Notes: generated from the letters alone by a model not told the origin. 44,532 nucleotides of DNA from an uncultured Methanospirillum sp. (GCA_964386835.1 CAYLUL010000001.1:1-44532); one strand, 5' to 3'. Positions 4,453-43,128 are shown, counted from the stretch's first letter. Translations and numbers: made by a program.

Positions 4453-4489
4453 CAATGTCACCTTCCCGAACCCACCCACTGGGCGGACA

Positions 4490-7720: not shown

Positions 7721-7846
7721 GACTGAACTCGGAGGGTAGCCTCATTCGGGCCCATCATGCCCGGGGATCGCTGGGGTTCGACCGGCAATCCTGCCGAAAC
7801 GGAGCTCTTAACCCCCAACCGGCCCCAAATAGAGAGAGAAGGGCTC

Positions 7847-8437: not shown

Positions 8438-8438
8438 G

Positions 8439-14360: not shown

Positions 14361-17327
14361 TTATCCCCGCGCCTCGTCGGTCTTTCGCTCGTGCAGGAGC
14401 AGTGCCGCCCGGTTCCGGACGAGGGGTGAGGGGTCGGCATACGCCTGCCTGATCAGGTCCGTCGCCCGGTCACCGCCGATCCCACCCAGGGCAATCACTG
14501 CACCGAGGCGAAGATCCGGGTCAGGGTGGACGAGAAGGGAGCCGAGCGGCTCGAGTGCCTCCTCGCCGAACCGGGCAAGCGAGCGCCAGTCCTCGGACGC
14601 CAGGGAGAAGCCCAGGGCCCCGCTCTCATCGGGGGCAGTCCACCCGGCTTCGCGGAGGATCTGGGAGACGCCGGAACGGACCTCCCGCTCGGGGCGCCCG
14701 AGCGCTTCGATGAGGGCCTCAAGGGCCCGGGGTCCTGCCCGGGCGAGAGCGGAGAGCGCCGCTTCGTGAACCGCGTAGTCGGAATCAGCGAGTCGATCGA
14801 CCAGGAGGTGCATCGCCCCGGGGGTGGAAAGGGCACCAAGCGAAGAGACGGCTGCCTCCCGGACTTCGGGGTCGGGATCATAGAGCGCCCCGGTAAGTGC
14901 GCCGACAGCCCCTTCGGCAGGCATCGACCGGAGTGCTTCTGCTGCAGCACGCCGTTCTGAGGGAGTGCCGGTAAAAAGTCGGCCTACGATCACCCCGAGT
15001 CCGCGTGGATCCCCGGTACGACCGAGCCGGCGGAGGAGAGACGGTGCATCTTCGGGCGTCCCAGCGAGGGCGCCGAGGAGAATGGACACGGGGTCCGGGG
15101 TCGGGGGCTCAGGAGTGGACAACTCTGAGGCCGGCTCCGGGGCATCCGGTTCCTGCCGTTCCGGCTCGGTGGACTCTGTCTCCGGGACGATTGCTGCGTC
15201 AACCCCTGGTTTTCGGGTCTCCTCTTCGGGCGGTCCAAGCGCCACAAGATGCAGTGTGGGCACGGGACCGGGAACGGTGACGACCGGCTCTCCCGGCTCC
15301 CGGTGCCATGCCTCGAGGGTCACCTCGTCCTCCTCGACCGTTGGGAGGATGACCTCCCGTATCGATGAGACGGGGGGCACTGGGTGCTCCCCCCCAAACC
15401 CTCCTGGCCGGAATGACTCGAGGGCGGTCCGCGCGGCATCGGCAACTTCTGGATCATGATCGTCCGCTAGCGGAGTGAGATAGTCCTCAGCCGCCATGCC
15501 AAGCTCCGCGAGGGCCCGGACGGCCCGCACCCTGACCGCGGTCGAACTCCCATCCTCTCGAGCGAGCGCGGCGATGGAGCTGGCCGCCGCCGGTCCGATC
15601 CCCCCCAGGGCGGCGATCGCGGCCGTCCCCGCTTCGGGCTCGTTGCGGACGAGGAGATCAAGAAGGCCCGGGACCGAGGCGCTATCGCGAAGGGCACCGA
15701 GGGTGCGGGCCGCGGCGATCGCCGCCGGCAGATCTCCTCCCGAGAGCACCGGGCGGAGGGCTGGCAGGATATCAGGGCCCAGGAGGATGAGTGCAGCAGA
15801 TGAGGCGGACCGGACCCGGAGGTACGGGTCCGATAGGGCGTCAATCAGCGCCGGCACGACGTCGGGATCGCCGGACTCCCCAAGCGCCCACGCCGCATGC
15901 TCCCGAACTGCTTCCTCCCCATCGGTGCGCAGCCTCTCCAGGAGGGGGGCCGTCGCCCTGGGGTCCATCAATCCAGCGAGGGCATCGACGGCGGCGCACC
16001 GGACCAGGTGGTCGGAGTCACGCAGCGACCCGATGAGGGGCTCGACTGCGTCCGGGCCGAGGCGGCCGAAGACCTCGACCGCAACGAGGCGAATTGAAGG
16101 GTCCATGCCCTCGAGGGCTGCATCAAGGGTGGCGAGGAGTTCGGTCGAGGGCGACTGGTGTCCTGCCTCCTCGCCGCGACGAAGCGCCTCATCGATAAAC
16201 TCCCGGATCGCGGTCTCCCGGTGCATCGAAGGCGGGGCCGAGATCCGGGTCCTGAGGGGAGCTCCACCTGCCACGGGGGTCGAGAGGGTTGCGAGCCGGG
16301 CGAAGAGCGAACCATCAACCCGGGGGTGCAGGACCGGGTCCGCGGACCCGGGGCCGTTACGAGAGGGCGCTGGAGCGAGGAAGGAATGCTCCTGGGCTGA
16401 AGAGATATCCTCGACCGGCATCTCCACGTCACCAGCCTGATCCCCGCGCGTCTCCACCGACCCGGGCACGGCGGAGAGGGCGGTTGGGGCGGGACCGGCC
16501 CGTACCAGAAGACCAATGGCGCCGTCACGGATCGTCGGGTTCGCGTGCAACCGCGCCTCTTCAAGGGCCCGCCGGCCTATGGGTCCGAGCCCGAGGAGGG
16601 CCTCGCCGGCCCCGGTCCGGATGCCGTAGTAATCGTCGGCGAGGGCGCGGACCAGGGCGGGAACGGCAGGTTCGCCGAGACGGACAAGAAGGGGCCACTG
16701 TTCAGTCGCCAGGAGGAGGGCAATCGTCTCCTCCTCAGTCTCCGGGAGCCAGCCGAAAGTCTCAAGAGCGCTCGCTGCGGCGAGCCGGACTGCGTGGGAC
16801 CGGTCGTGCAGAGCGTTCCGAAGAAGGGGGATTCCTCGCGGCTCCTCAAGGCGGCCCAGGGCCTCTGCCGCGGCGGCCCTCACCTCCTCTTCGGGGTCGC
16901 GAGTCAGCAGGGCCGCGAGGGGTGGGAACGCAGCGACGTCCCCGATCCTGCCCAGCGAGCGGATTGCCTCTTCCCGGATCCCGAAATGCGGATCCCGGAG
17001 GGCCCCGATCAGGGGCGGAACAGCGGCCTTACGCATCCGGACGATCGCGTCCCAGTCCTCCAGGGCGTACCGGAACGCGAACTCCTCGCGCTCGTCGGCG
17101 GCTGTCCACTTCGATTGCTCGAGCGCCTGGGCCGCCCCGAGCCGGACCCGGAACGAAGGGTCGGAGAGGCGGGGCTTGAGCGCTGGCCAGGCGGTTCGGC
17201 CCATCTGCTGGAGCGCGAGCACGGCCCCCCGGCGGAGCTCCTCGCGGCCCGAAGCGAGCGCCCGGACCAGCTCAGGGATCGCCTCCTCACCGTATCGGGC
17301 GATCAGGGACGCCACCGCCGGGTACAC
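14361..17327 (-). CDS. HEAT/PBS-lyase repeat protein (at least 988 aa; the repeat-coding frame stays open to nt 17705)
   Basis: Dozens of repeats of the form D.D..VR..A..ALG..G. A central P/E-rich linker. The first canonical start is the GTG at 17327, but clear HEAT repeats continue upstream in the same frame (see findings). Confidence 0.85.
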   Translation of the reverse strand: MYPAVASLIARYGEEAIPELVRALASGREELRRGAVLALQQMGRTAWPALKPRLSDPSFRVRLGAAQALEQSKWTAADEREEFAFRYALEDWDAIVRMRKAAVPPLIGALRDPHFGIREEAIRSLGRIGDVAAFPPLAALLTRDPEEEVRAAAAEALGRLEEPRGIPLLRNALHDRSHAVRLAAASALETFGWLPETEEETIALLLATEQWPLLVRLGEPAVPALVRALADDYYGIRTGAGEALLGLGPIGRRALEEARLHANPTIRDGAIGLLVRAGPAPTALSAVPGSVETRGDQAGDVEMPVEDISSAQEHSFLAPAPSRNGPGSADPVLHPRVDGSLFARLATLSTPVAGGAPLRTRISAPPSMHRETAIREFIDEALRRGEEAGHQSPSTELLATLDAALEGMDPSIRLVAVEVFGRLGPDAVEPLIGSLRDSDHLVRCAAVDALAGLMDPRATAPLLERLRTDGEEAVREHAAWALGESGDPDVVPALIDALSDPYLRVRSASSAALILLGPDILPALRPVLSGGDLPAAIAAARTLGALRDSASVPGLLDLLVRNEPEAGTAAIAALGGIGPAAASSIAALAREDGSSTAVRVRAVRALAELGMAAEDYLTPLADDHDPEVADAARTALESFRPGGFGGEHPVPPVSSIREVILPTVEEDEVTLEAWHREPGEPVVTVPGPVPTLHLVALGPPEEETRKPGVDAAIVPETESTEPERQEPDAPEPASELSTPEPPTPDPVSILLGALAGTPEDAPSLLRRLGRTGDPRGLGVIVGRLFTGTPSERRAAAEALRSMPAEGAVGALTGALYDPDPEVREAAVSSLGALSTPGAMHLLVDRLADSDYAVHEAALSALARAGPRALEALIEALGRPEREVRSGVSQILREAGWTAPDESGALGFSLASEDWRSLARFGEEALEPLGSLLVHPDPDLRLGAVIALGGIGGDRATDLIRQAYADPSPLVRNRAALLLHERKTDEARG

Positions 17328-27369: not shown

Positions 27370-29199
27370 ATGCGAATGCTGCCTGCCGCGCTCGCCGCGA
27401 TCGTTCTCCTGGTCGCGCCGGCGCTCGCCTGCTCGACCTTCATCATCACCCCCGGCGCCTCGGACGACGGGTCAATGTACATCGCGCACTCCAACGACGG
27501 ATTCGGTCCCGGGGTGCTCGGACACAACCTCTCAGAGGAGGACACGCACCTGGTATACGTTCCTGCCGGAGACCACCCGTCCGGGGCGAAGCGGACGGTC
27601 CATTTTGACCCGAACTCGGGGTCCGACGACCCGGTTGACCGGGCTTCGACCGACCACCGCAACACCTCCGAGATCGATGAAGTCCCGCACACCTATGGGT
27701 ACCTGACCGGGAGCTACGGGATCATCAATGAGGTCGGGCTGATGGCGTCCGAGTGCACGGACTACGCACGAGTCCAGCCGAACTGGGACCCCGAACGCCG
27801 AATCTTCTACTCGTCTGAGCTCTCCAACATCGCGCTCGAACGGTGTCGTACTGCGCGTGATGCGGTCGAGCTTGTCGGTGGGTTGATCGACCGCCACGGG
27901 TTTTACGGGACCGGCGAGACCCTGCTCTTCGCCGATCCTGAAGAGGCCTGGGTGATCGAGATGTGCGGGTACGACATGAACGCAACGGGGGGACTCTGGG
28001 CGGCAGAACGCATCCCCGACGGACATGTCTTCGTCGCCGCCAACACCTTCCGGATCCGCGATATCACCCCCGGACGCGATGATCAGCTCCACTCGGAGAA
28101 CCTCTTTCGGGTTGCCGAGGACCGAGGCTGGTGGCGTTCGTCGGACGGACCCCTCGACTGGCTACAGACGGTCTCGACCGGCGAGTACTCCCACCCCTAC
28201 TACTCTCTCTCGCGGGTCTGGCGCCTCTACGACCGGATGGCCCCATCGCTCCACCTCTCCCCCTACGTGGAGGGAACATACACCTCCGCCTATCCATTCT
28301 CCTCGAAGCCCGACAAACCCGTGAACGCCACGACAGTGCTCTCGCTCTTCCGTGACCATTACGAGGGGACGGTCTTCGACCTCACGAATGGGACGGCGGC
28401 GGGCCCATACGGCGACCCGTACCGTAACTCCGGCTTCTTCGACAACCACCAGCCCTTCGCGCCCGGAGAAGTTCGACCTGGTGCCTGGCCACGGCCGATC
28501 TCGCCGCTCTTCTGCAGTTACAGCTACGTCTGCCAGGGTCGCTCCTGGCTCCCGGCCGACGTGGGCGGCATCGCCTGGATAGGATTTGCCGTGCCGGCCG
28601 AGACGGTCTATCTCCCGATATATGCCGGTTCGAGCGCGCTGCCGGCATCGTTCTCGAAAGGGAATCGGAGCGAAGTCTCACGCGACTCCGCCTGGTGGGC
28701 CTTCAACCTGGTGACCAACTGGGCACGCCTCCGGTACAGCGATATGATCCCGGAGATCCAGGCCGAACAACAGGCGATCGAGGCGGCGGCGCTGAACAAT
28801 CGAACCACCGTCGACGGCGAGGTTTTGCGGTTGAGAAATGTCTCAGGGGAAGCGGTGTCCCGGGAGTTCCTGACGAACTGGACGGTGGCGAACGCCGAGG
28901 CAAGCGTGGACCGCTGGTGGCATTTTTCAGACCGGCTCATCGCACGGTACGCGAATGGGATGGTGAACGACTTCGTGAACGGGACGACAGCGAACCCCGG
29001 GTATCCGGTAACCTGGTACGACTCGAACGGATACCAGTATGGACCGAGGGTCTACGACATGGAGGGACTTGGTGCGATCTCCGGCCTTGCCTATGTCAAC
29101 AACACGGTGTTGGTCAGTCCCGGTGACGAACTCCGCCTGATCCGCGAGACCCAGCGGCGCGCCGGGAACGGGACCGCCTCCCCCTCCCCATCGCCCTAA
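27370..29199 (+). CDS. Secreted C69-family (Ntn-hydrolase) dipeptidase
   Basis: The signal peptide ends ...APALA, followed by CSTFIITPGASDDGSMYIAHSND (N-terminal nucleophile Cys). Later come GETLLFADPEEAWVIE and FVAANTFRI. Confidence 0.85.
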   Translation: MRMLPAALAAIVLLVAPALACSTFIITPGASDDGSMYIAHSNDGFGPGVLGHNLSEEDTHLVYVPAGDHPSGAKRTVHFDPNSGSDDPVDRASTDHRNTSEIDEVPHTYGYLTGSYGIINEVGLMASECTDYARVQPNWDPERRIFYSSELSNIALERCRTARDAVELVGGLIDRHGFYGTGETLLFADPEEAWVIEMCGYDMNATGGLWAAERIPDGHVFVAANTFRIRDITPGRDDQLHSENLFRVAEDRGWWRSSDGPLDWLQTVSTGEYSHPYYSLSRVWRLYDRMAPSLHLSPYVEGTYTSAYPFSSKPDKPVNATTVLSLFRDHYEGTVFDLTNGTAAGPYGDPYRNSGFFDNHQPFAPGEVRPGAWPRPISPLFCSYSYVCQGRSWLPADVGGIAWIGFAVPAETVYLPIYAGSSALPASFSKGNRSEVSRDSAWWAFNLVTNWARLRYSDMIPEIQAEQQAIEAAALNNRTTVDGEVLRLRNVSGEAVSREFLTNWTVANAEASVDRWWHFSDRLIARYANGMVNDFVNGTTANPGYPVTWYDSNGYQYGPRVYDMEGLGAISGLAYVNNTVLVSPGDELRLIRETQRRAGNGTASPSPSP

Positions 29200-29217
29200 C
29201 GGTGTCCCCGTACCGGT

Positions 29218-30441
29218 ATGGACAAGGATGAAATAACCAGAACCACCACATCCACTATGGACGACGAACAGGGCCTTGTTCCGGCTGAACAGGTGCTGGG
29301 ACCTGATCCAGCGCCGGACAGGACCGGGTACCGGGCCCTGATGGTCGGGACTGCAGTCGCCGGCCTGGTGGTCTCCCTCCTCCTCCTCTCGAGCCCCGAT
29401 CTGAACGCCGAGCTCCTGCTCCTCACGGCGGGGGCGCTCCAGGTCGCACCTTTCGTCCTCATCGCGTTGGCCGCCTACCTGGCCGAAGACTCGCGCCCTC
29501 TCCGGTACATGACCGGGCTTCTGCTGTTCGGCCTGATCGGGGTCCTGGTCCTCCTCTCGTTCGCGCTCGGCCTGATGGCGATCCTCCCTGCGGGCGCCCT
29601 CGAGAGCGCGGCCCTTCCGCCGGGGATGGAGGGGACCGTGCTCGCCCTCTTCGGGCTCGGGTCGATCTGCGGGCTCGTCTCGCTCGCCGGGTTCCTGCCC
29701 CCGGTCCGGCGCCTGCTCGCCAGGGTGATCCCGCTCGACCCGAACTCCTTCGTCCACGCAGTTGCCCTCGTCCTCGTGCTCGCCATGGTCCTCGTGCCCC
29801 CTGTGCCCCTGGTCGTGAACGGTGCCCCACCATTCCTCTCGGAAGCCCTCCTCGGCGGGGATGAAACCGTCGAGAATCCGGGTGACTTCGCCCGCTCGGA
29901 GGCCTACTCCCTTCTCTTCATCATCTACGGCTCGTTCCTGATCGTTGGGCTCTTTGTCCGGCGAACCTTCTCCGAGGCCCTTGAGCGCCTAGCTTTTGTC
30001 CGCCCGACGGGCCGGCAGGTCGTCTTCGCGGTCGTCGCCGCCCTGGTGCTGGTCGTGGTCTTCGGGCTCGTCGATCGGGCAATCGCCGCCGTTTGGGGGG
30101 CACTGGGGTGGGCTGTCACGGATGACGAGGCGTACCGCCGCCTCTTCTCCGACGTCCTGACCCCGGTCGGCGCTGTGACAGCGGCGGTCTCTGCCGGGAT
30201 CGGGGAGGAACTGGCTGTCCGGGGGGTGCTTCAGCCGGTCTTTGGGATCGTCCTGCCGAGCCTCCTCTTCGCTGCACTCCACGCCTGGCAGTACTCCTGG
30301 GACGCCCTCCTCTCGGTCTTTCTTGCTGGGCTCGTCTTCGCCTGGATCCGGAGGCGGGCGAACACGACGACCTGCGCCATCACCCACGGGCTCTACGACC
30401 TGGTGCTCTTTGGTGCGCTGGCGACCGGGTTCACGATCTGA
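29218..30441 (+). CDS. CPBP-family (CAAX-type) intramembrane metalloprotease
   Basis: Multi-TM protein with GIGEELAVRGVLQ (EExxxR), FAALHAWQY (FxxxH) and AITHGLYDL (HxxxD/N). Confidence 0.85.
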   Translation: MDKDEITRTTTSTMDDEQGLVPAEQVLGPDPAPDRTGYRALMVGTAVAGLVVSLLLLSSPDLNAELLLLTAGALQVAPFVLIALAAYLAEDSRPLRYMTGLLLFGLIGVLVLLSFALGLMAILPAGALESAALPPGMEGTVLALFGLGSICGLVSLAGFLPPVRRLLARVIPLDPNSFVHAVALVLVLAMVLVPPVPLVVNGAPPFLSEALLGGDETVENPGDFARSEAYSLLFIIYGSFLIVGLFVRRTFSEALERLAFVRPTGRQVVFAVVAALVLVVVFGLVDRAIAAVWGALGWAVTDDEAYRRLFSDVLTPVGAVTAAVSAGIGEELAVRGVLQPVFGIVLPSLLFAALHAWQYSWDALLSVFLAGLVFAWIRRRANTTTCAITHGLYDLVLFGALATGFTI

Positions 30442-30447
30442 GGTACC

Positions 30448-30891
30448 ATGACCGCGAAGCTGCTCCCCCTTGTTCTTCTCCTCGCACTCGCCGCTGTCGG
30501 GTGCCTCTCCCCGGACTCGGCCGATCCACCCAACGGGCTTGCACTGAAGACCGGCCCCGTGACGTCCGAGCCTGCACCACCCGTGGATCAGAGCACCGGG
30601 GTTCTCTTCTTCTGGGGCGAGGACTGCCACGCCTGCCATGATGTACGCCCGTTTGTCGAGGAGCTGGCCCGGACACACCCCGATATCCAGTTCGACTTCG
30701 TCGAGATCTACAGAAACGAGACGAACGCAACCCGGTATCATGAGGCCAACAGCGCCCTGAATGTCACGCCCCGCGGCATCCCCGAGGTGATCGCCGGCAG
30801 ATCGGCGTTCTTCGGAGATGAGGAGATTCGCGAGAAGCTCCCCGGGGCCGTCCAGGCGATCGAAGCGGGGAGAGGGGAGGGGGGCGGTTGA
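30448..30891 (+). CDS. Thioredoxin-fold lipoprotein (CxxC)
   Basis: Lipobox-like LAAVGC. FFWGEDCHACHDVRP gives a WxxxCxxC redox motif. Confidence 0.6.
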   Translation: MTAKLLPLVLLLALAAVGCLSPDSADPPNGLALKTGPVTSEPAPPVDQSTGVLFFWGEDCHACHDVRPFVEELARTHPDIQFDFVEIYRNETNATRYHEANSALNVTPRGIPEVIAGRSAFFGDEEIREKLPGAVQAIEAGRGEGGG

Positions 30892-30944
30892 GGAACCGGT
30901 CCCTGGGCGCCACGTATATACCCCCCCGCGACGACCGATCGTCC

Positions 30945-31298
30945 ATGGCTGATTCACGCCGTGAACTCGAGAAAGAGCTCGTCTGGGATCTCGCTGGGCT
31001 TGTCGACTACCAGCCCGGTTCGATCGCCTCCCGGATGCTGGTCTTCAAGCACGCGGGGACGATCACGCTCTTCGCCTTCGACGAGGGCGAGGGGCTTCCA
31101 GAGCACACGGCGCCGTACGATGCAATCGTGACCGTGCTCGAGGGAACAGCCCGCGTCACCATCCGCGACAAAGAGTTCACCCTCAAGACGGGCCAGGTGA
31201 TCGTCATGCCTGCATCCATTCCGCATGCGGTGCACGCGGTTAGTCGGTTCAAGATGCAGCTCGTGATGATCCACGAGGAGGACCGGCCTGGATCCTGA
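30945..31298 (+). CDS. Cupin-domain protein (117 aa)
   Basis: FDEGEGLPEHTAPYDAIVTVLEGTARVTI...GQVIVMPASIPHAVHA are cupin motifs 1 and 2. The ATG at 30945 was verified. GTATATA at 30914-30920 lies 25-31 nt upstream, suggesting a leaderless transcript. Confidence 0.8.
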   Translation: MADSRRELEKELVWDLAGLVDYQPGSIASRMLVFKHAGTITLFAFDEGEGLPEHTAPYDAIVTVLEGTARVTIRDKEFTLKTGQVIVMPASIPHAVHAVSRFKMQLVMIHEEDRPGS

Positions 31299-31361
31299 AC
31301 GCAATTGGACCTGTGCTAACATCGGAAAGGTTGAACCGGTCAGGGGACCCATTCACGATGG

Positions 31362-32180
31362 ATGAAGCAGATCGCCCTCTACGGCAAGGGAGGTATCGGG
31401 AAGTCGACGACCTCGGCAAACCTCTCAGCCGCGCTCGGAGAGAGCGGGCGATCGGTCCTCCAGGTCGGGTGCGACCCAAAACACGACTCGACACGGATGC
31501 TGATGCATGGTGAACCGCTCCCGACGGTGCTCGAGCTGGTGCGGGAGCGAGGGGCGGCCGGTGTCGCCCTCGAGGATGTGGTCCGGCCTGGTTATGCTGG
31601 CGTCCGGTGCGTGGAGGCCGGCGGGCCTGAGCCCGGTATCGGATGTGCCGGCCGGGGCATCATCGCAACCTTCCAGCTCCTGGAAGAGCGAGGTGCCCTC
31701 GAGGCGGACGTGATCGTCTACGACGTCCTCGGCGATGTGGTCTGTGGCGGCTTCGCCATGCCGATGCGGGAGGGCTATGCCGAGGAGGTCTACCTGGTCA
31801 CCTCGGGCGAGCTGATGTCGCTCTACGCGGCCAACAACATCGCGAAGGCGATCGCTCGCCTCGCCGAGCGGCCGCGTTGCCGCTGCAGGCTCGCCGGCGT
31901 AATCCTGAACGCAAAGGGGATGGAGCGCGAGGAAGAGCTGGTGAGCGAATTCGCGGTTGCGATCGGCTCCCGGCTCGTGGCCGCGATACCCCGGGACCGG
32001 GTGGTCCAGCTCGCCGAACTTCACCGCCAGACCGTGATCGAGTATGCGCCCGACTCGGCACAGGCCGGGGTTTACCGACGGCTTGCCGACGATCTGCTCC
32101 GCAACACCGACCTCGCGATCCCGCGACCCCTCACCCAGGATGCCCTCGAGTCCCTCGCCTTTGCGTACGCCCCGTTCTAA
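31362..32180 (+). CDS. NifH/BchL/CfbC-family Fe-protein-like ATPase (nitrogenase-like reductase component)
   Basis: P-loop [23 protein letters not shown], 4Fe-4S ligands GIGCAGRG and [10 protein letters not shown], and switch [12 protein letters not shown]. Confidence 0.95.
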
Positions 32181-33174
32181 CGGGTGCACCCTTGCTGGCG
32201 CCCTCTCGGTCGCCACCGCGGTCTCGGATGGCCTCACCATCGTCCACGGCCCGGCCGGGTGCGCTCACCACCATGTCTCGCTCCTCCTCACCACGCTCCT
32301 CGACCAGCCCGGGGTCCGGATGCCGACACTCCTTTCGGATGATCTCCGTGAGGAGGAGGTGATCTTCGGAGGAGAGGAGGCCCTCGCCCGGGCCCTCGAT
32401 GAGGCCACTGCGCGGTCTCCGGAATCGATCGCGATCCTCTCGACCTGCGTGGCCGAGGCGATCGGCGACGACTGCGAGGCGGTGTCTGCCCGTGTCCCAG
32501 AGACAGTCCCGGTCGTCGTGATCCCGGTCGGAGGATTCTTCGGCGGGGGGTTCCTCGAGGGGGAGCGGACCGCCCTCCAGGCCTACGGAGTGCTCGCCTC
32601 CCGGCTCTCAACCCCAGAACGGAGCGACGAGCCCGTGATCGCGCTGGTGGGCGAGAAGAACCTGGAGTTCGATGCTGACACCCACGCTGAAGAGCTCGGT
32701 CGGCTTCTTGGGCATCTCGACCAGGAAGTCGGGCTCCGGTTCGTCCGCAAGGCCCCAACCAGCACACTCGGCCTCTTACCCAGCGCCGATCTGCTGATCC
32801 TTCGCGAGCCGGCTCTGGCATCGGTCGCGGTCCGGCTACCGGTCCGACCTGGCACGCCGCAGATCGACGGGTTCCCAGTTGGCCTCACGGCGACAGTCTC
32901 GTTCCTGGGAGCGGTGGGTGCAGCCCTGGGGCAGGATGCGGAAGCCGCCTGCGAGGCCGAAGCCTCCCACCAGGAGACGACCCTCGCCCGGTTCGCCGGC
33001 CTCGCGGGGAGTCGGGTGTGGTTCCCAACGGGGGGACAATGGCTCGCTGAGCTCGCAGACGCCCTCGAACTGGTCATTGACCCCGCTGGGGTCTTGCTCC
33101 CGGTGCCTGAACCCGCCCCGGTCGGAACTGCGGGAATCGCCCGACTCCTCTCGCGCTGGAGGCGAGCACTCTGA
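32161..33174 (+). CDS. Nitrogenase component-1-type oxidoreductase subunit (short NifD/NifE/BchN/CfbD-like, about 337 aa)
   Basis: [30 protein letters not shown] and [17 protein letters not shown] give three Cys in NifD/BchN-like positions. The only canonical start near the fold's beginning is the TTG at 32161, a 20-nt overlap with the H gene. The ATG at 32044 would add 39 codons read across the H gene. Confidence 0.8.
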
Positions 33175-33215
33175 CACGATCGTCGTGCCGGGCCGGGCCA
33201 CTCGTCCCGTGTGCC

Positions 33216-34307
33216 ATGGTCGGGGCGGTCGCCTGCCTCTCGGCCTATAGCGGCATGGGGGTTGTCGTCCATGGATCATCCGGCTGCTGGTTTTACCCCT
33301 CTTCCCTCCTGAAGATCGACCTGGGGTGCACGGATCTTTCGGCCGAAGATGCGATCCTGGGAACCGGGGACCGGGTCAGGGCGGTTGTCGAGGCAGCACT
33401 CACTCGCAACCCCCATGTCGCGGTGGTAAATACCTGCGTCCCTGGGATCATCGGGGAGGACTTCATAGGGCTTTTCGACGGTCTGTCGGTCACCGTCGTT
33501 GACGCGCCCGGCTTTCTTGGAGGAGCACCCGTTGGGCATAAGGCCGCCATCGCCGCCCTCGAACCGGTCGTCGATCCGGAGGTTGAGTCGATCGGGATCG
33601 ACGGGCTTTCGCCCCTTGACCCGTTCTTTCGCGGAGACCTGCACGAGACCGAGCGCCTCCTCCGCCTGGCAGGGGCCGAGCCGGGAACAAGGTACGCGGG
33701 TGGCCCGGTCACCTCGGTTCAGCGGGCATCCCCTGTGACGGTGGTCGCGAACCCGGCTTACGCGGCCGGCCCTGGTCTTCGAGCCGGCGACCTCATGGGG
33801 CTTGAGGCTGTCCGGGCGACCTTCAACCGGCTCGCAGACCTCGATCCCCGGATTGACCCCACCCCGATCGAGGACGAGTGCCTCGAGACCGAGGATCGAT
33901 GCCGGCGCGCCGGGAATAGATTCCTCGCCCGGCACGATCCACCCCGCGTGGCGGTCTTCGGAGATGGTGCTCGGGTGCGGGCCGCAGCCCGAACTCTCGA
34001 GAGGTACCTGGACGCAGACTGCGTCCTCCTCGGGGATCGGGGTGATCCCGCGGGGAGCGACAGGTCCCGATGGTGCCGGGGCGACGACCTCGGCCCGGTC
34101 GAGGAGGCCCTCTCGGCTGCCGGCCCGGACCTCGTGCTCGGGTCCTCATTCGAGGAGCGATTGGCGCCCGGCGCAGCATTCGTCCCGTTCGGTCCCCCAG
34201 TCAGGGGCCGGCCACGCCTGGCCTCCGTTCCCCTCTGCGGAATCGAAGGGACGCTCGCCCTCGTCGAGGCGGTGCTCATCGCGTGTGCGGCCCGACGAAA
34301 GGCTTGA
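33216..34307 (+). CDS. Second, divergent nitrogenase component-1-type subunit (NifK/NifN/BchB/CfbD-like, 363 aa)
   Basis: MVGAVACLSAYSGMGVVVHGSSGCWFY and VVNTCVPGIIGEDF show the same fold signatures as the preceding gene with low identity to it. The ATG at 33216 was verified. Confidence 0.8.
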   Translation: MVGAVACLSAYSGMGVVVHGSSGCWFYPSSLLKIDLGCTDLSAEDAILGTGDRVRAVVEAALTRNPHVAVVNTCVPGIIGEDFIGLFDGLSVTVVDAPGFLGGAPVGHKAAIAALEPVVDPEVESIGIDGLSPLDPFFRGDLHETERLLRLAGAEPGTRYAGGPVTSVQRASPVTVVANPAYAAGPGLRAGDLMGLEAVRATFNRLADLDPRIDPTPIEDECLETEDRCRRAGNRFLARHDPPRVAVFGDGARVRAAARTLERYLDADCVLLGDRGDPAGSDRSRWCRGDDLGPVEEALSAAGPDLVLGSSFEERLAPGAAFVPFGPPVRGRPRLASVPLCGIEGTLALVEAVLIACAARRKA

Positions 34308-34327
34308 AGCCGGTGGGCACCCAGGAG

Positions 34328-34552
34328 ATGAGGATGACGGGTACGCAGCGTGACTCGATCCAGGTCGGTTTCAGGGTTGCAATCATCCAGAAGCAGGACC
34401 AGCGGACCGGCCGAACGGTTGAGGGCGTCGTGGCGGAGCTCCTGACGCGCTCGTCGACGCACCCGCACGGCATCAAGGTACGGTTGACTGACGGTCGTGT
34501 TGGGCGCGTTGCGAGCGTGCTCGGGAATGATTCGGTGGCCCCCGATAGCTGA
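34328..34552 (+). CDS. YwbE-family small protein (DUF2196)
   Basis: IIQKQDQRTGRTVEGVVAELLTRSSTHPHGIKVRLTDGRVGRV matches the YwbE signature (KKDQRTG...SxxHPHGIKVRLxDGxVGRV). It is the C-terminal part of track ORF 34070..34552. Confidence 0.85.
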   Translation: MRMTGTQRDSIQVGFRVAIIQKQDQRTGRTVEGVVAELLTRSSTHPHGIKVRLTDGRVGRVASVLGNDSVAPDS

Positions 34553-34667
34553 ACGGGGCCCGCCCCCTGAAGACGTCGTGCAAGGTCCCACGAAACAAAC
34601 GGAAAAAATGGCCGGGATGATAGGGCTCCCGGTGGCCCGAACGACCCTGTCCGGCTCAATTCCCGGT

Positions 34668-35132
34668 TCAGCTCCCTTCTGAGAGTTCCTCGACCACCCC
34701 CCGCCCGAATGGATCAGCCACAAAGACCTCCTCGACAGTCTGCCTGATCCCCTCATCCCCAATTCGGTTCAGGGCGGCCGCCGCCATCCAGCGGCAACAC
34801 TCATTTTTTCCATGCAGGTTCTCCATCAGCGACGGGATTGACCGCGAGTCACCGATGTGTTCGAGTGCCCAGATCGCCGGCACCCGGACCCGCCAGTCCA
34901 GATCCCCTGCCGCCACCATCAGGGCTTCAACGGCTGGAGGCCCGACACGCTCGAGCGCCACGGCGGCACGCCACCGTGTCTCACGGTGGACGGACCGGAG
35001 TAGCGGTGCGACGTCGAGGACCGCCCCCTCGCCGATCGTCCCGATCGCCGCGGCCGCATCGAGCATCTGGTAGGTCGTGCCATGCACGAGCATCCGGACG
35101 AGCTCGCTCGTCCTCGTACCATCATCACTCAT
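34668..35132 (-). CDS. HEAT-repeat protein (154 aa)
   Basis: Repeats ...HRETRWRAAVALERVG and DLDWRVRVPAIWALEHIGD. The ATG at 35132 is preceded by GGGGAGGGAGAGAG. Confidence 0.75.
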   Translation of the reverse strand: MSDDGTRTSELVRMLVHGTTYQMLDAAAAIGTIGEGAVLDVAPLLRSVHRETRWRAAVALERVGPPAVEALMVAAGDLDWRVRVPAIWALEHIGDSRSIPSLMENLHGKNECCRWMAAAALNRIGDEGIRQTVEEVFVADPFGRGVVEELSEGS

Positions 35133-35248
35133 CTCTCTCCCTCCCCTTGTCGACGTGGTATCGACGGACCAGACTCGGAACGGAGCGATATTATTAATTT
35201 GCAGCACGATGTCGCCCGGCAACGTCGCCCGGCGAAAAATAACGGGGG

Positions 35249-37895: not shown

Positions 37896-39992
37896 ATGGT
37901 CCTGAATGCCCTCGCTCTTGTGTATCTATGTGCGGGGCTCCTGATCGCGGGGGTCGCCGCCGCCACCTGGCCCCGGCGTCAGGTACCCGGCGGTTTCTCC
38001 ATTCTCTTGCTTCTGTTCGCCCTGGCGGTCTGGGCGGGGGCCTACGGCCTTGAGCTGATGGTCGAGGCGAAGGAGATGATGGTCGTACTCGGTGTCATCC
38101 AGGACATCAGCATAGCGACGCTCGCTCCCCTCTGGCTCTCCTTCACAGGCGCTTTCTCCGGCCGCCTGACATTGTCCCGTTCAGGGTGGGGAGTGATCCT
38201 GGCCGTCCCGACCCTCACCATACTCCTCGTGCTGACAAACGACCTGCACCACCTCTTCTATGCGGGGATCGAACTCGACTCAAGTGGACCCATCCCCCTC
38301 CTCCACCTCGTTCCCGGGCCGTGGTACGCAGTCCAGGTCGCGTACTCCTTTATTGCAATGTGCATCGGTGCCGGCCTCCTCCTCGGTCATGCCTGGTCCT
38401 CCCCACCACCGCTTCGCCGCCAGATCCTGGTGTTCGTGTCCGCGGCGATCATCCCTGGCGTGGCCCTCGTCCTCTACACGGTCGGTATCCGCCCGCTCGA
38501 CGAGGTCGACCTGACACCGCTCGGGTTCGCCCTCGCCGCGCTCGTCATCGCCCATGCGCTCTTCCGACACCGGTTCCTCGACCTGGTCCCGATCGCGGCG
38601 CCCACCGTGATCGATCGGATCCCGATCGGCGTCCTCGTGGTGGACCAGATCGATCGGGTCATCGCGATAAACCCGGCGGCAGCCCGCATCTTCGAGTGCG
38701 AACCTGACCAGGTGATCGGCAGCCCGTTCTTGAACCTTGCAGACGGATGGGATGGGTTACGGGCAGTCCTCGACCAGACATATGTGGACGGACCGGTCGT
38801 GGTCGGACGGACACGGGACGGGAGGCCCAGCGAGAAGTATGAGGTCGACCTCGCACCTCTTGAGGAGTCCGGCGGGCGGGCGGTCCTCGTTCGGGACATC
38901 ACGGCCCGGACTCGTGCAATCACTGCGCTTCAGGAGAGCGAGACCTTCATTCGGGGCCTTGTCGACAACCTCCCCGACCTTGTCGTGGTCTTCGACCAGG
39001 ATCGGCGAATACTCTTCGTCAACCCCGCGGTCGAACACGTGCTCGGGGCACCGGCCGAACTCCTTATCGGCACGAAGACCACGGACCACATTGCTGCCGG
39101 ATCACTCGGGATCATGGAGGCAATGGACGGGGTGACCGAGATCGGGAGATCCGTGCCGCCGTACGAAGCGGAGATCCGGACCGTCCACGGGCGGTCAATC
39201 AGCGTCTCCGTTCGGATCGTCCCGGTCCCGTACCACGATCAGCCCGCAAGACTGGCCCTGCTCAGGGAGATCACCGAGCAGAAAATGCTCGAGGCGGCCC
39301 TGCACCGAAGAACCGCGGAACTCGAGGAGGTCTCGGAAGCGGCACTCCGCGCCAACCGGGGTCTCAACCTCATGAACGCCCTGACGAGGCACGATATCGG
39401 TAACCAGCTCGTCGCGATCCGGGGGCACCTCGACCTCGCTTCGGATCTGACGAAGACGGACGAACTCGCTGACCGCCTCGCCCGCACCCGTGCCTCCATC
39501 GGCCGGGTCGAGGCGATGGTCAGGTTCATGGGCGAATACGCCTCGCTCGGAACCGCAGCGCCGGCTTGGCAGGAGATCTCCGCCCTCGTCCGGGCAGCGG
39601 CGAACGGGCTCCCGCTCGAAGGGGTCGCCATCGAGGATCAGACCGGTGGTGTCGAGGTGCTGGCGGACGCCCTCCTCGAGCGTGTCCTCTCCACGCTCCT
39701 CGAGAACGCGGTCCGCCACGCAGGCCCGACCCTCTCGCGGATAACGATCGCCACCAGGACCGAGAAGGGCGGGCTCATCGTCACCGTGGAGGATAACGGC
39801 ACAGGTGTCGCATCAGACGAAAAACAACGCATCTTCGAGCAGGGATACGGCAGGAACACGGGGCTCGGTCTCTTCCTTGCACGGGAGGTGCTCGCGATTA
39901 CTGGGATCGGGATTGCGGAGACAGGCGAACCGGGGCGGGGAGCCCGGTTCGAGCTTCACGTCCCGGCAGAGGCCTGGCGTCTCGCCTGCTAG
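37896..39992 (+). CDS. Sensor histidine kinase with an N-terminal 7TM sensor, two PAS-like domains, HisKA and HATPase_c
   Basis: Seven hydrophobic helices. PAS-like IDRVIAINPAAARIFE and RRILFVNPAVEHVLG. H-box LTRHDIGNQL. N, G1 and G2 boxes LENAVRHA, VEDNGTGV and GLGLFLAREV. The ATG at 37896 follows GGGGGAGGAGGG. Confidence 0.92.
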   Translation: MVLNALALVYLCAGLLIAGVAAATWPRRQVPGGFSILLLLFALAVWAGAYGLELMVEAKEMMVVLGVIQDISIATLAPLWLSFTGAFSGRLTLSRSGWGVILAVPTLTILLVLTNDLHHLFYAGIELDSSGPIPLLHLVPGPWYAVQVAYSFIAMCIGAGLLLGHAWSSPPPLRRQILVFVSAAIIPGVALVLYTVGIRPLDEVDLTPLGFALAALVIAHALFRHRFLDLVPIAAPTVIDRIPIGVLVVDQIDRVIAINPAAARIFECEPDQVIGSPFLNLADGWDGLRAVLDQTYVDGPVVVGRTRDGRPSEKYEVDLAPLEESGGRAVLVRDITARTRAITALQESETFIRGLVDNLPDLVVVFDQDRRILFVNPAVEHVLGAPAELLIGTKTTDHIAAGSLGIMEAMDGVTEIGRSVPPYEAEIRTVHGRSISVSVRIVPVPYHDQPARLALLREITEQKMLEAALHRRTAELEEVSEAALRANRGLNLMNALTRHDIGNQLVAIRGHLDLASDLTKTDELADRLARTRASIGRVEAMVRFMGEYASLGTAAPAWQEISALVRAAANGLPLEGVAIEDQTGGVEVLADALLERVLSTLLENAVRHAGPTLSRITIATRTEKGGLIVTVEDNGTGVASDEKQRIFEQGYGRNTGLGLFLAREVLAITGIGIAETGEPGRGARFELHVPAEAWRLAC

Positions 39993-41539
39993 AGTGCAGA
40001 GAAGAGCCGAACCGCGTCGGCGAAGTCGATCCTCTGGTTCCCGTTGAAATCGAACGCGGCGAGGGGCTCGTTCTCACCGATCCACGCCATCTGGTTAAAA
40101 AAGAGCACGACGTCCGCAAAGTCCGCACGGCCGTTCCCATTCACATCCTCGAAGAGTCCGTCGCCCTCCTTATCACGAGGGGTGCCCGATCCACCGGGGA
40201 TGGGGACCGGCATGTCACCCGTTGTGACGGAGAACTGGAGCCGGTCCAGGTTCAGGTTCCCAGCCGGGAACCGGACCACGAGGGTGTGGGGGCCCGGCGC
40301 CAGGGACCGTTCTTCGGCCGCCCCAGCCGAGATGTAGGTTCCGAACCCACCGCTGTTCGGGACAGCGACGGTGTAGGTTGTTGTACCGTCGACGAGCACC
40401 TCGATCCGGCCGTTCGCATTCGGCGAGGCGACCCGGCCTTCGAGGCGGTAGACGCCAGCCTGACCCACGGTCAGGTTATATGCGAGGTACTCGCCGTCGC
40501 GGACATAACAGACGGCGTACCCCCCAGGGATGGCCTCGATGTCGACGTCATCGGACCGGTAGGCGCCCCCCTGGTTACCGGGCGTCGTGTCCGAGAACCC
40601 GCCCGGGCGGTAGTCCTCCGCCTCGACGGTCCCAGGGAGCTGGATCGGCGTCAGCTGGGGGACAGGTGTCGTGGTCGAGGTCGGGGATGACGGGTTCCAT
40701 CCAGCGAGCCGGGCGAAGAGGTGCCAGGCGGCGTAGGCCTTCCGGTTCGCGTTCAGGGGCTCCGTGTGTGCCGCACTGCAGGGGTACCAGTCCGTGCCCT
40801 CCACATGCGAGTCCTGCCAGGCCCGCGCCCAGTTGCCTCCGTCGTAGTCACAGGCGTCGTTCGCCCCGCGTGCGAGATAGCTGTGTCCGTCGGGATCGAA
40901 GGACTCGATATCTGCAAAGTCGTAGAGAACCCCGTTATGACTCCGGACCCAGGCCCGGATCTGTTCGTTCCGCTGGTTGAGGTTTCCTTCCACCCCGGTA
41001 CCATCCAGGTGTCCGGTCATGTACACAAAGGTGACCGAGGGGAAATCTCGCTCCAGGGCGGACATGAGCGAGAGATAGGTGTTGATATTTGACTCGGACG
41101 CCCCTGAGACCTGCCCGCACCAGGACCACATGACGACGTTGACGTCGTCGTTCGCGGGATTGGAGAGATAGGCCCTTGTACGGGTGGCCCAGGAGGTGAA
41201 ATCAGGATTGCCGAGATCGCCCGAGGCGAAGTAGTCATCGATGTCCAGGGCGCCGCCTGCTCCTCCCTCGCTCCATGAGTACGTCGCTGGCGAGAGCGGT
41301 GCCCCTTCAAACGTGACGAGACCGGACATACCGCCGATCAACTGGGAACCATGGGAGGTGTGTCCATAGGCTACGTGGAGGTGTGCCTTCGCGTTCTCTA
41401 CCGCCGAGGCCGGGATGGCGTTGAGATCGACCGAGGTGTGATCGATGACCAGAGGTGAGGTGCGGGCACCAGCGACAGGCAGGGTCGCGAACACGGCGAC
41501 CACCATCGCGGCGATCAGGAGGAGACGGAAGGTGTGCAC
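39989..41539 (-). CDS. Secreted protein with an N-terminal hydrolase-like domain, a CBM6-like carbohydrate-binding module and a C-terminal dockerin-like module
   Basis: Signal peptide ...LPVAGA. TVEAEDYRPGGFSD...GGYAVCYVRDGEYLAYNLTVGQAGVYRLEGRVASPNANGRIEVLVDG matches the CBM6 pattern. GTG start at 41539, with AATTTTATT at 41569-41577, i.e. 30-38 nt upstream. Confidence 0.8.
   Translation of the reverse strand: MHTFRLLLIAAMVVAVFATLPVAGARTSPLVIDHTSVDLNAIPASAVENAKAHLHVAYGHTSHGSQLIGGMSGLVTFEGAPLSPATYSWSEGGAGGALDIDDYFASGDLGNPDFTSWATRTRAYLSNPANDDVNVVMWSWCGQVSGASESNINTYLSLMSALERDFPSVTFVYMTGHLDGTGVEGNLNQRNEQIRAWVRSHNGVLYDFADIESFDPDGHSYLARGANDACDYDGGNWARAWQDSHVEGTDWYPCSAAHTEPLNANRKAYAAWHLFARLAGWNPSSPTSTTTPVPQLTPIQLPGTVEAEDYRPGGFSDTTPGNQGGAYRSDDVDIEAIPGGYAVCYVRDGEYLAYNLTVGQAGVYRLEGRVASPNANGRIEVLVDGTTTYTVAVPNSGGFGTYISAGAAEERSLAPGPHTLVVRFPAGNLNLDRLQFSVTTGDMPVPIPGGSGTPRDKEGDGLFEDVNGNGRADFADVVLFFNQMAWIGENEPLAAFDFNGNQRIDFADAVRLFSAL
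39992..40177 (-). repeat. Dockerin-like 62-aa module, copy 2
   Basis: RDKEGDGLFEDVNGNGRADFADVVLFFNQMAWIGENEPLAAFDFNGNQRIDFADAVRLFSAL. Confidence 0.8.
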
Positions 41540-41691: not shown

Positions 41692-43128
41692 TCAGAGTCC
41701 TCGAAAGAGCACGACCACATCTGCAAAATCGATTCGGCTATTCCGGTTGTAATCGAAGGAGGCGAGCGGTTCGTTCGCGGCAATCCAGGTCATCTGGTTG
41801 AAATACAGAGTCACGTCTGCAAAGTCGGTCCGGCCATTCCCGTTCAGGTCCTCGTACAGTTCATCGCCGTCGAGATCCCGGGGGATGTCGGATCCGCCTG
41901 GCACCCTCCGAAGGCCGGCACCGATATGGAATACATGGATGAGGAATGAGTCTCCGTCGCCTCGAAATTCACAGACGTAGAAAATGTGCATGGACGGATC
42001 GTACGTGGCCGCACCGAGTCGACGTTTCTCCTGTATTCCCCGCGATCTGAACAGGATGGGGTCCACCACCATCTCGGCAATCGGTTGCGGAGCATACGGG
42101 GAGAGCCGGCCGGAAGCGACCAGCGCGAGGTCTTCAGGGTCGTAGAACAGGAGGACGGCTTCGAAGGAATCTGCCCACCACCCCCGGTCCCCGTATGCAG
42201 GCCCGGGATCAGGTTCCTCCGGCACATAGCGCTTTCCGTTCGCCCAACCATACCAGCAGTCACCTCTCGCCCTGGTGCCTGCGAAGACGACTGCCGAGCG
42301 GTCCTCAGCAGTCAACCAGGCGCACCCCGACCATTCGTCTGCATCCCGGTACCCGTTCATTACGTTCGATGAGCCCTCGTATCCCTTCTCGTACAGGAGG
42401 AGTGGTACCACGTGAGAGAGTGTGGTGTTCGGACCTGGAGGGTTCCCGTCGAGCCAAGGAGCGAACAGAACGAGTGATGGGCCGGAACCGCCGAGCGAGC
42501 CCTCCCGATATCGCCCGGTGGCGAGCAGATACCCGGGTGCGTGAACCCTGGCCCACGGCTTCGGTACGGTGGCCATATAATCGTCGGTCGCAAAATTGGG
42601 AAGATCTCCAAGGAGCCACGGACCGTTCGCATCGGGGGAGGATAGGTCAGGAGAGACCGAAGCATGTCGGGCGGTCTGTTCGTACTCGTAGTGTTCGGCA
42701 AAGGAAAAGTATAGTCGCGCTTCGCGCCCATCATCCGGGGGCAGGTAGGCAAGGTCACCCGATTTCGGAACGCCGTCCCCTGAATCCACAAAAATCCCCG
42801 CCTTGATATCCTCGAAAGGCTGTATAAGGCGAGCTTTCGGTAGATCCTCCGGGTTATGCGACTCCGACAGTTCAGGTACTGGGATTGATATCTCCGCGAC
42901 GTGGTTCTGTTGGTCGTGGCCCATCACAAACAAGGATCCCCGTCCCCCGTCTCCGTCGGGACAGAAAGTGAGTCCGCCACCACCATAGGGAAAGCCATAA
43001 TCCGTTCCGTCATCCGGCATGCGGAAAGAGCCAAGGTACGTGAGATCACCCGGTCCAAGGGAGGACGCACCGGTTGGCAGGATGAGAAGGAACAGGGCCA
43101 GAACAACCAACAGGGGATGCGGCGCCAT
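41692..43128 (-). CDS. Secreted protein of unknown N-terminal fold with a C-terminal dockerin-like module
   Basis: Signal peptide ...LILPTGASS. About 400 aa rich in G/D/W/Y with no motif I recognise. Dockerin-like tail. TTAATAT lies 22-28 nt upstream of the ATG. Confidence 0.75.
   Translation of the reverse strand: MAPHPLLVVLALFLLILPTGASSLGPGDLTYLGSFRMPDDGTDYGFPYGGGGLTFCPDGDGGRGSLFVMGHDQQNHVAEISIPVPELSESHNPEDLPKARLIQPFEDIKAGIFVDSGDGVPKSGDLAYLPPDDGREARLYFSFAEHYEYEQTARHASVSPDLSSPDANGPWLLGDLPNFATDDYMATVPKPWARVHAPGYLLATGRYREGSLGGSGPSLVLFAPWLDGNPPGPNTTLSHVVPLLLYEKGYEGSSNVMNGYRDADEWSGCAWLTAEDRSAVVFAGTRARGDCWYGWANGKRYVPEEPDPGPAYGDRGWWADSFEAVLLFYDPEDLALVASGRLSPYAPQPIAEMVVDPILFRSRGIQEKRRLGAATYDPSMHIFYVCEFRGDGDSFLIHVFHIGAGLRRVPGGSDIPRDLDGDELYEDLNGNGRTDFADVTLYFNQMTWIAANEPLASFDYNRNSRIDFADVVVLFRGL
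41695..41880 (-). repeat. Dockerin-like 62-aa module, copy 3
   Basis: RDLDGDELYEDLNGNGRTDFADVTLYFNQMTWIAANEPLASFDYNRNSRIDFADVVVLFRGL. Confidence 0.8.

Follow-up and report, generated by a model that had tools for sequence, protein, structure and literature searches.

H-D1-D2, a probable three-component nitrogenase-like reductase conserved in Methanomicrobiales

Nitrogenase-like (NFL) enzymes catalyse some of the hardest biological reductions. The current analysis deals with three genes related to these enzymes, referred to as H, D1 and D2, which are situated among five plus-strand genes at positions 30945-34552 of a 44,532-nt stretch of DNA, the whole of which is called the window. According to a 2026 review (PMC13474568), a function has been verified or proposed within group IV for Nfa, CfbCD, Mar and Isr only; two more clades of this group, and group VI as a whole, have no characterised member, and the review places the finding of functions for the many uncharacterised NFLs among the greatest challenges of the field. 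A pair of NifD/E-like and NifK/N-like proteins (Mlab_1040/Mlab_1039) has been described by Dos Santos et al. 2012 in Methanocorpusculum labreanum. The pair lacks ligands of the iron-molybdenum cofactor (FeMo-co), is often encoded next to genes for ABC transporters and was assigned no function, and the 'NifHEN-like' clades of the same study also include Desulfitobacterium Dhaf_1539/1540 (PMC3464626).

The H-D1-D2 family is almost certainly the family of Mlab_1039/1040, as judged from organism and context and not from the sequences of these two proteins; gene order and transporter neighbourhood agree in the Methanocorpusculum locus. The existence of the family is therefore not new, and the literature searched has yielded no paper that names it or assigns a function to it. 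What the current analysis adds is its wide distribution in Methanomicrobiales, a six-cysteine ligand set that is seen only with corrected N-termini, a putative non-canonical start of D2, a conserved promoter-like element and the borderline CfbC identity of H. We propose that the three gene products probably form a three-component NFL reductase, comprised of an Fe protein (H), an alpha subunit (D1) and a beta subunit (D2).

Conservation of the triad and types of its component 1 subunits

The window belongs to a Methanoregulaceae-like archaeon, its best-matching genome loci being those of Methanoregulaceae and of metagenome-assembled genomes of Methanomicrobiales. A relative of D2 is encoded in 295 species genomes of GTDB, and the best 80 of these 295 are all Methanomicrobiales. 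Homologues of D1 and D2 in a collection of 5.8 billion proteins have likewise been found only in Methanomicrobiales, namely in Methanoregulaceae, Methanoculleus, Methanofollis, Methanosphaerula, Methanolinea and Methanocorpusculum. Outside the archaea, D1 has its closest relative in a 372-aa protein of Limnochordia type, which is encoded in a homologous H-D1-D2 triad; the D2-like protein of this triad opens with a similar C-x7-C two-cysteine motif. The archaeal hosts, Methanoregula, Methanoculleus and Methanolinea among them, are methanogens that are dominant in the environment, and with a minimal core of three genes in at least 295 species genomes the system offers a clean case for study.

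H, D1 and D2 are contiguous in most of the loci that have all three genes. D2 is on the opposite strand, a few kb off, in about 10 Methanoculleus-type loci, and several others have an insertion before D2; in one locus (L001; related loci are cited by such L numbers) an IS605-type helix-turn-helix gene and a PIN gene separate D2 from H-D1. No third PF00148 gene is encoded within 10 kb on either side in 89 related loci. At least 76 of the 89 loci have all three open reading frames (ORFs) intact. Identities across genera amount to 70-78% for H, 39-50% for D1 and 38-51% for D2, which reflects purifying selection on all three genes. H-D1-D2 is the conserved core of the locus.

The products of D1 and D2 belong to the component 1 superfamily, with scores of 156.8 and 101.4 bits on PF00148 (gathering threshold 28.6). 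An earlier, sequence-only reading of the window had recognised two different component 1 subunits, and by profile and by fold they are one of each type. A profile of D1 searched against PDB finds NifE (123-159 bits) and NifD (120) ahead of VnfD/AnfD and BchB (97), with 92 and 94 bits for 9d9u_A and 9d9u_C, the component 1 chains of methylthio-alkane reductase, and the profile of D2 finds AnfK (77 bits) and NifK (75). AlphaFold2 models of the two proteins (pLDDT 89 for D1 and 87 for D2) are matched by Foldseek to NifE, NifD, NifK and BchB with a probability of 1.00, in keeping with the three-domain Rossmann-type fold of the superfamily. The best fits of the D2 model are to AnfK, VnfK, BchB and NifK, with TMq of 0.81-0.83, alpha subunits reaching 0.65-0.74; the D1 model is non-discriminating, with TMq of 0.62-0.75 to all component 1 proteins alike. 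D1 is an alpha-type subunit (NifD/NifE-like) and D2 a beta-type subunit (NifK/NifN/BchB-like).

Neither subunit is a CfbD, MarD/K, NifDK, NifEN or BchNB/YZ protein. On the NCBIfam models of NifD and NifE the scores of D1 are 78-90 bits, far under the cut-offs; taken singly, its scores are 57-90 bits on the NifD/NifK models (cut-offs 486-654) and 78.4 bits on the NifE model TIGR01283 (cut-off 505). No match of D2 to the NifN model TIGR01285 was reported at an E-value of 0.01 or less. On the CfbD model TIGR03282 (cut-off 268.4) D1 scores 47.8 and D2 29.9 bits, more than 220 bits too low, and the matches cover the N-terminal region only. The sequence-only reading had suggested an uncharacterised heteromeric group IV-type reductase, with CfbD and MarHDK as the identities against which it should be checked. 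Model scores and profile matches uphold the suggestion: neither protein is a CfbD, D1 is nearer to NifE and NifD than to the two 9d9u chains, and D2 is nearest to AnfK/NifK. A rough neighbour-joining tree was anchored solely on NifDKEN, clostridial Nif and Chlorohelix sulfur-context NFL proteins from plasmid records. D2 forms a clade with a bootstrap of 100 on the NifK/NifN side, and D1 falls on the alpha side, outside a NifD+NifE clade that also has a bootstrap of 100.

Ligand residues were compared with NifD/K/E/N of a Bradyrhizobium plasmid, NifD/K/E of Clostridium butyricum and the Chlorohelix sulfur-context NFL. The invariant residues C16, C41 and C103 of D1 align with C62, C88 and C154 of NifD, and C14, C39 and C89 of D2, in the extended numbering explained below, align with C70, C95 and C153 of NifK. 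These six P-cluster columns are filled by cysteine in every D1 and D2 examined, and D2 has a fourth invariant cysteine, C6. Residues H43/H44, R200, R222, E274 and Q278 of D1 are invariant as well. The column of NifD C275 holds arginine in D1, and no histidine is found at the columns of H442 or H195. Since the six cysteine columns are kept and the ligands corresponding to C275 and H442 are absent, D1 and D2 together have a complete P-cluster ligand set and no FeMo-co or L-cluster site. We know of no characterised enzyme with this combination.

The predicted pair resembles NifDK, VnfDK and AnfDK in the six P-cluster cysteine positions, in its alpha/beta architecture and in its Fe protein, H matching solved NifH structures with 310 bits. 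It differs from them in that D1 has no equivalents of Cys275, His442 and His195, the subunits have 345-378 residues as against ~480-520, and no nifB, nifE, nifN or nifI is found near the cluster. With NifEN, which provides the best sequence relatives of D1, it shares the plan of an alpha/beta heteromer served by a NifH-type protein and the want of a His442 equivalent. It departs from NifEN in having no cysteine at C275 of D1 and three cysteines in D2 as against one in the NifN anchor, and both subunits are ~100 residues shorter. The likeness to DPOR and COR lies in the probable chemistry, a reduction beside an inter-subunit Fe-S cluster with no complex cofactor, and D2 superposes on BchB with a TMt of 0.75; the difference lies in the Fe protein, H having 222 bits on the BchL model and 196 on that of BchX as against 394 on that of CfbC. 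The cluster ligands of DPOR are three cysteines and one aspartate (PMC13474568).

N-termini of D1 and D2

D1 had been placed correctly by the sequence-only reading, but with a start at TTG 32161 and an overlap of 20 nt with H. The most likely start is the ATG at 32140, which gives an overlap of 41 nt, because the N-terminus M-x-S-x-P-S-P...GC is common to the family (alignment A1). An H/D1 overlap of ~35-41 nt is present likewise in the gene calls of L084 and L087.

For D2 a motif C7-x16-C24 had been read, which does not hold, since Cys7 is alanine in many homologues and the conserved N-terminal cysteines are encoded upstream of the first ATG. This ATG, at 33216, gives a protein of 363 aa. The peptide C-RAGPLVP-C-A is encoded in frame immediately 5' of it in the window and in 12 close relatives, and across the family D2 begins with such a C-x7-C peptide (...C-x-N-P-L-W-P-C-A-M-T-G-A...) after a normal start codon. 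When D2 is numbered from the first ATG, the resulting spacing Cys(-2)-x24-Cys24 equals that of D1. Third positions account for 8 of the 11 variable nucleotide sites in the 10 codons of the peptide, synonymous codon differences in pairwise comparison outnumber non-synonymous ones by 236 to 34, and within the window's clade the D2 ATG always follows the D1 stop at 42 or 45 nt. This pattern of substitution indicates that the upstream peptide is translated and under purifying selection.

From the in-frame upstream stop to position 33216 the window lacks an ATG, GTG or TTG. An in-frame CTG at 33171-33173 overlaps the D1 stop (cTGA) in all 13 members compared (the window and L003-L014), and in the window it is preceded by GGAGG at a distance of 8 nt. 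Because of this overlap and the preceding GGAGG, initiation at CTG or termination-reinitiation is suggested for D2, giving a protein of 378 aa. In an AlphaFold2 model of this extended D2 the mean pLDDT is 87; residues 11-20, which include Cys14, also have 87, and residues 1-10 have 51.

Gene calls of D2 in the window's clade truncate the N-terminus and drop ligand cysteines, and in Methanocorpusculum (L088, 8982-10008) the called start of D1 cuts off two of them. Automatic annotation thus hides the ligand cysteines through mis-starts of D2, and of D1 in Methanocorpusculum, and names H 'CfbC'. The Mlab pair as published (PMC3464626) has 2 and 1 conserved cysteines, as compared to 3 in D1 and 3+1 in D2 with the N-termini corrected here; truncated gene calls may be the reason for the lower published counts.

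An apparent D1-D2 fusion in L008 (8924-11308) was considered and rejected; since the usual stop closes the D1 frame in this locus too, a frameshift in the assembly is the preferred reading. D1 is also split, or joined to D2, by apparent frameshifts in L014, L040 and L080, for which, as for L008, assembly indels are the most likely cause. No obvious slippery sequence for a programmed frameshift was seen just upstream of the D1 stop.

The Fe protein, the proposed mechanism and its rivals

The hallmarks of an Fe protein that had been listed for H, i.e. the P-loop (GKGGIGKS), CAGRG and VCGGF(AMP), are all present in its translation and in the alignment to NifH. H also has the CDPKHDST that had been noted, and it scores 352 bits on PF00142 (gathering threshold 25). 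An assignment to the BchL/CfbC-type branch is borne out on the CfbC side only: H has 394.0 bits on the CfbC model NF033200, narrowly below the cut-off of 402, and 375.8 bits on the NifH model (cut-off 394), as compared to the much lower score for BchL given above. Orthologues of H are named CfbC by NCBI and score 415-427 on the CfbC model, and a true clostridial NifH reaches 386 on it. As the orthologues stand so close to a genuine NifH, the H family sits at the edge of the CfbC model. The best 120 matches listed for H are all orthologues.

CfbCD resembles the present system in being a methanogen NFL with a CfbC-like Fe protein, catalytic subunits of ~350 aa and no complex cofactor site. It differs in that CfbD forms a homodimer of one subunit type, with a symmetric [4Fe-4S] cluster (PMC13474568), whereas here two different subunits with P-cluster cysteines are encoded. 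That no cfbA, cfbB or cfbE adjoins the cluster agrees with the domain search, by which none was found in the entire window, and no CfbD-type gene was found within 10 kb on either side in the 89 loci. The flanks reached through proteins encoded in the window contained nothing bearing on a separate cfbC or cfbD, and a search of the literature for these genes in Methanomicrobiales found nothing. For Methanosphaerula palustris a single-subunit NflD/CfbD gene, Mpal_0679, has been listed (PMC3464626), which lies at a great distance from the M. palustris cluster at 260-281 kb of the genome. Non-diazotrophic methanogens can hold two nifH homologues, as exemplified by Methanocella paludicola (PMC3146512). 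Group VI NFLs of Elusimicrobia type have an Fe protein that is sister to BchL/BchX, lack some of the P-cluster cysteines in D/K and lie in a neighbourhood rich in radical-SAM genes (bioRxiv 10.1101/765248). H-D1-D2 does not belong to this group, as it keeps the cysteines, has no adjacent radical-SAM genes and has an H that ranks CfbC (394), NifH (376) and BchL (222) in this order.

Taken as a three-component reductase, the system would operate as follows. A homodimer of H would bind and hydrolyse MgATP and carry a [4Fe-4S] cluster, for which each monomer would supply Cys95 and Cys130 as bridging residues (aligned with Cys97 and Cys132 of NifH). The dimer would dock on a (D1D2)2 heterotetramer and pass low-potential electrons to an Fe-S cluster at the interface between D1 and D2, to which each subunit would contribute its three cysteines of the P-cluster ligand set. 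Because D1 has no equivalents of the FeMo-co/L-cluster ligands, the substrate would probably be reduced directly beside the interface cluster, as in DPOR, COR and CfbCD, whereas Nif, Mar and Nfa employ a complex cofactor for this step. The quaternary structure, the type of the cluster and the electron path are those that we infer.

Metal-importer genes occur beside the triad in three separate lineages. CbiQ/CbiO nickel/cobalt uptake genes adjoin D2 in Methanofollis, NikR and CbiM adjoin it in Methanocorpusculum, and the triad of the closest bacterial relative of D1 (L092, metagenome contig LSQX01234917.1, 197-7352) lies directly downstream of genes for TonB, a Peripla_BP_2 binding protein and a FecCD permease, which constitute an importer of the Fe-chelate/haem/B12 type. 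Since such importers recur and H is CfbC-like, our best guess at the class of substrate, and a tentative one, is a metal chelate or metallo-tetrapyrrole. A more specific idea, which we hold to be rather doubtful, is that H is the sole CfbC-type Fe protein of Methanomicrobiales and serves two catalytic components, D1D2 performing a second ATP-driven reduction; its substrate would be an imported metal chelate or a nickel tetrapyrrole, either an intermediate or a variant related to F430. If H were the only CfbC, the cfbC of the order would share its operon with an extra alpha/beta pair instead of cfbD. We know of no earlier case in which two catalytic partners share a nitrogenase-type reductase, and the system would then be tied to the metabolism of nickel cofactors and through it to the production of methane.

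Several points weigh against a three-component reductase of this kind. A P-type site of six cysteines with no second cluster has, to our knowledge, no characterised precedent, and direct reduction at the interface cluster is suggested by analogy. The best sequence matches of D1 are to a maturase, NifE, so that a scaffold role is conceivable. The deep nodes of the neighbour-joining tree are unsupported (<50), and the tree is relied on solely for the placement of D1 outside NifD/E. The adjacency of importers is sporadic (2 of ~10 archaeal genera), and the commonest neighbours (rubredoxin, FprA, SOR, PRK and TrkH; LeuB/LeuCD) are uninformative on function.

Of the other explanations the one given most weight, though still unlikely, is a NifEN-like scaffold or maturase that with H takes up a NifB-made cluster and hands it on, for instance to the activation complex of MCR. 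Besides the NifE match of D1, the universal and essential nature of NifB in methanogens and the L-clusters in McrC/Mmp7 (PMC12176620; bioRxiv 10.1101/2023.10.20.563283) speak for it, as does an mmp/McrC-like operon ~6 kb from the M. palustris cluster. This neighbourhood is however seen in a single genome, the family is confined to one order whereas MCR activation is universal, and neither NifB nor NifX is encoded next to the cluster, be it in the window or in the loci with gene calls that were read. The ligands also disagree: D1 has no conserved cysteine at the NifD C275 position, a FeMo-co ligand at which both NifE anchors have cysteine, and the NifN anchor has cysteine at one of the three positions so occupied in D2. 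An F430 reductive cyclase with a duplicated subunit, in which H is CfbC and D1D2 replaces CfbD or is a diverged form of it, is less probable again. The CfbC scores of the H orthologues, the CfbD-like size of D1 and D2 and the nickel/cobalt uptake genes adjoining the cluster in two genera would accord with it. D1 and D2 nevertheless fall far short of the CfbD model and lie nearer to NifE/NifD and to NifK respectively, and their 3+3 cysteine set is unlike the symmetric [4Fe-4S] site of CfbD (PMC13474568). The H of the window is itself under the CfbC cut-off on a model that already gives a true NifH 386 bits, and Mpal_0679 is a separate CfbD candidate away from the cluster.

A C-S bond reductase of Mar/Isr type (Group IV-C, IV-F) for the acquisition of sulfur is equally improbable. 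MarHDK and IsrHDK belong to the same broad group IV-type superfamily and are heteromeric NFLs with their own Fe protein, as is predicted here, and many uncharacterised group IV systems are tied to sulfur metabolism (PMC13474568). D1 matches the 9d9u chains less well than NifE or NifD, D1 and D2 are 90-170 residues shorter than these chains (519 and 466 aa), and the cluster is not flanked by a radical-SAM B subunit or by sulfur-metabolism genes, unlike the Chlorohelix locus. The NifD C275 position, equated with the Mar cofactor ligand Cys270 (PMC13474568), has no cysteine in D1, and the Chlorohelix sulfur-context anchor has one; this comparison covers the cysteine ligand. Least probable of all, and to be given hardly any weight, is a decaying remnant with no current function. 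The want of a canonical start codon for D2 in the window and the separation of D2 from H-D1 in Methanoculleus (as in L001) could be so explained, and are outweighed by the intact ORFs, the invariant ligand residues, the excess of synonymous differences in the D2 upstream peptide and a promoter-like element kept across most of the order. A three-component reductase is thus the reading that we prefer.

Gene layout, transcription signals and neighbouring genes

The five ORFs lie on the plus strand as the sequence-only reading had claimed, with family matches far beyond chance, and the gap of 20 nt between D2 and YwbE is as had been given. The overlaps of H with D1, and of the D1 stop with the proposed D2 start, suggest co-translation of the three subunits. 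The GC content in the window is 59-70%.

Table 1. Features of the H-D1-D2 locus (positions in the window)
Feature	Position	Strand	Remarks
TATA-like box GTATATA	30914..30920	+	~28 nt 5' of cupin ATG; read from sequence
Cupin, Cupin_2 protein, 117 aa	30945..31298	+	Pfam Cupin_2 7.7e-14
H promoter-like element	31298..31337	+	common to 41 loci
Element part AACGCAA	31298-31304	+	
Element part CTAACATCGG	31316-31325	+	
Purine-rich BRE-like stretch		+	part of the H element
TATA-like box GGTTGAACC	31329-31337	+	part of the H element
H, NifH/CfbC-type Fe protein, 272 aa	31362..32180	+	Fer4_NifH 2.6e-105
D1, alpha-type component 1 subunit, 344 aa	32140..33174	+	Oxidored_nitro 1e-45
D2, beta-type component 1 subunit, proposed 378 aa	33171..34307	+	Oxidored_nitro 6.5e-29
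D2 peptide encoded 5' of first ATG	33186-33215		C-RAGPLVP-C-A
YwbE/DUF2196 protein, 74 aa	34328..34552	+	DUF2196 1.8e-28; TIGR03833 7.4e-29

The GTATATA before the cupin gene has counterparts in AT-rich boxes at equal distance in L003-L014 and is a possible promoter for a leaderless cupin transcript. No TATA element had been seen between the cupin gene and H, which is not upheld, as the spacer holds a promoter-like element that is kept across most of the order. Its skeleton, AAC[GA]CAA-N11/12-[CT]TAAC[AT]TC[AG]G followed by a purine-rich stretch and then a TATA-like box, recurs at -45 to -47 from the H ATG. The TATA-like box, centred ~29 nt before the H ATG, is CTAATATAAA in Methanoregula and GGTTGAACC in the window. 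H-D1-D2, possibly with YwbE, would probably be transcribed from a promoter of its own into an mRNA with little or no leader, and the upstream half of the element may be a transcription-factor site. Because this element precedes H, the single five-gene operon that had been envisaged is doubtful. The operator consensus of NrpR is GGAA-N6-TTCC; inspection by eye of the H promoter region found no such site, the nearest match being GGAA-N6-AACC.

Cupin and YwbE had been taken as partners of the triad, and they turn out to flank it only in the window's clade and in Methanosphaerula. A cupin gene adjoins H only in L003-L014, L016 and L084-L086, and YwbE follows D2 only in L003-L016 and L084; the unit cupin-H-D1-D2-YwbE occupies two different genomic settings. 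Both genes are lineage-specific companions and not parts of the core. Elsewhere the upstream flank is comprised of rubredoxin-FprA-SOR-(PRK)-TrkH, and the downstream flank of a 136-aa protein without domains, a PAS protein and LeuB/LeuCD. Neither the window nor the loci with gene calls that were read have a radical-SAM gene beside the cluster. Ahb haem genes were rejected as partners, being near the cluster in four relatives only (L003, L007, L008 and L014), and so was the mmp operon, which is near it in M. palustris only. In the latter genome (L084, 1-2808; CP001338) a methanogenesis-marker operon encoding DUF2112, BcrAD_BadFG, DUF2113 and MCR_C-type proteins lies ~6-7 kb upstream of the cupin gene, with seven unrelated genes in between.

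Directly 5' of the cupin gene of the window, on the same strand, genes for a C69 peptidase, a CPBP/Rce1-like protease and a thioredoxin-like lipoprotein (27370-30891) follow each other with gaps of 6-53 nt, an arrangement kept only in the window's clade. Convergent with YwbE is a gene on the minus strand for a 184-aa HEAT-repeat protein (34668-35222), after which an A-run at ~34604-34610 (a T-run on the minus strand) is a likely terminator. Another protein, of 988 aa (14361-17327, minus strand), is made up almost entirely of HEAT/PBS-lyase repeats.

Archaea normally rely on Holliday-junction enzymes other than those of the bacterial Ruv type. RuvA and RuvB genes of bacterial type have been identified at 7757-9443 of this archaeal contig, and the related contig L094 (6301-8494) has the same two genes with RuvC adjoining. 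Two large ORFs on the minus strand, of 1331 and 417 aa (484-4479 and 4490-5743), have no Pfam match and are both gene-called on L094. Also on the minus strand, two proteins (39989-41539 and 41692-43128) have dockerin type I domains, one of them with CBM6/CBM35 in addition; such dockerin/CBM modules are cellulosome-style and unexpected for a methanogen.

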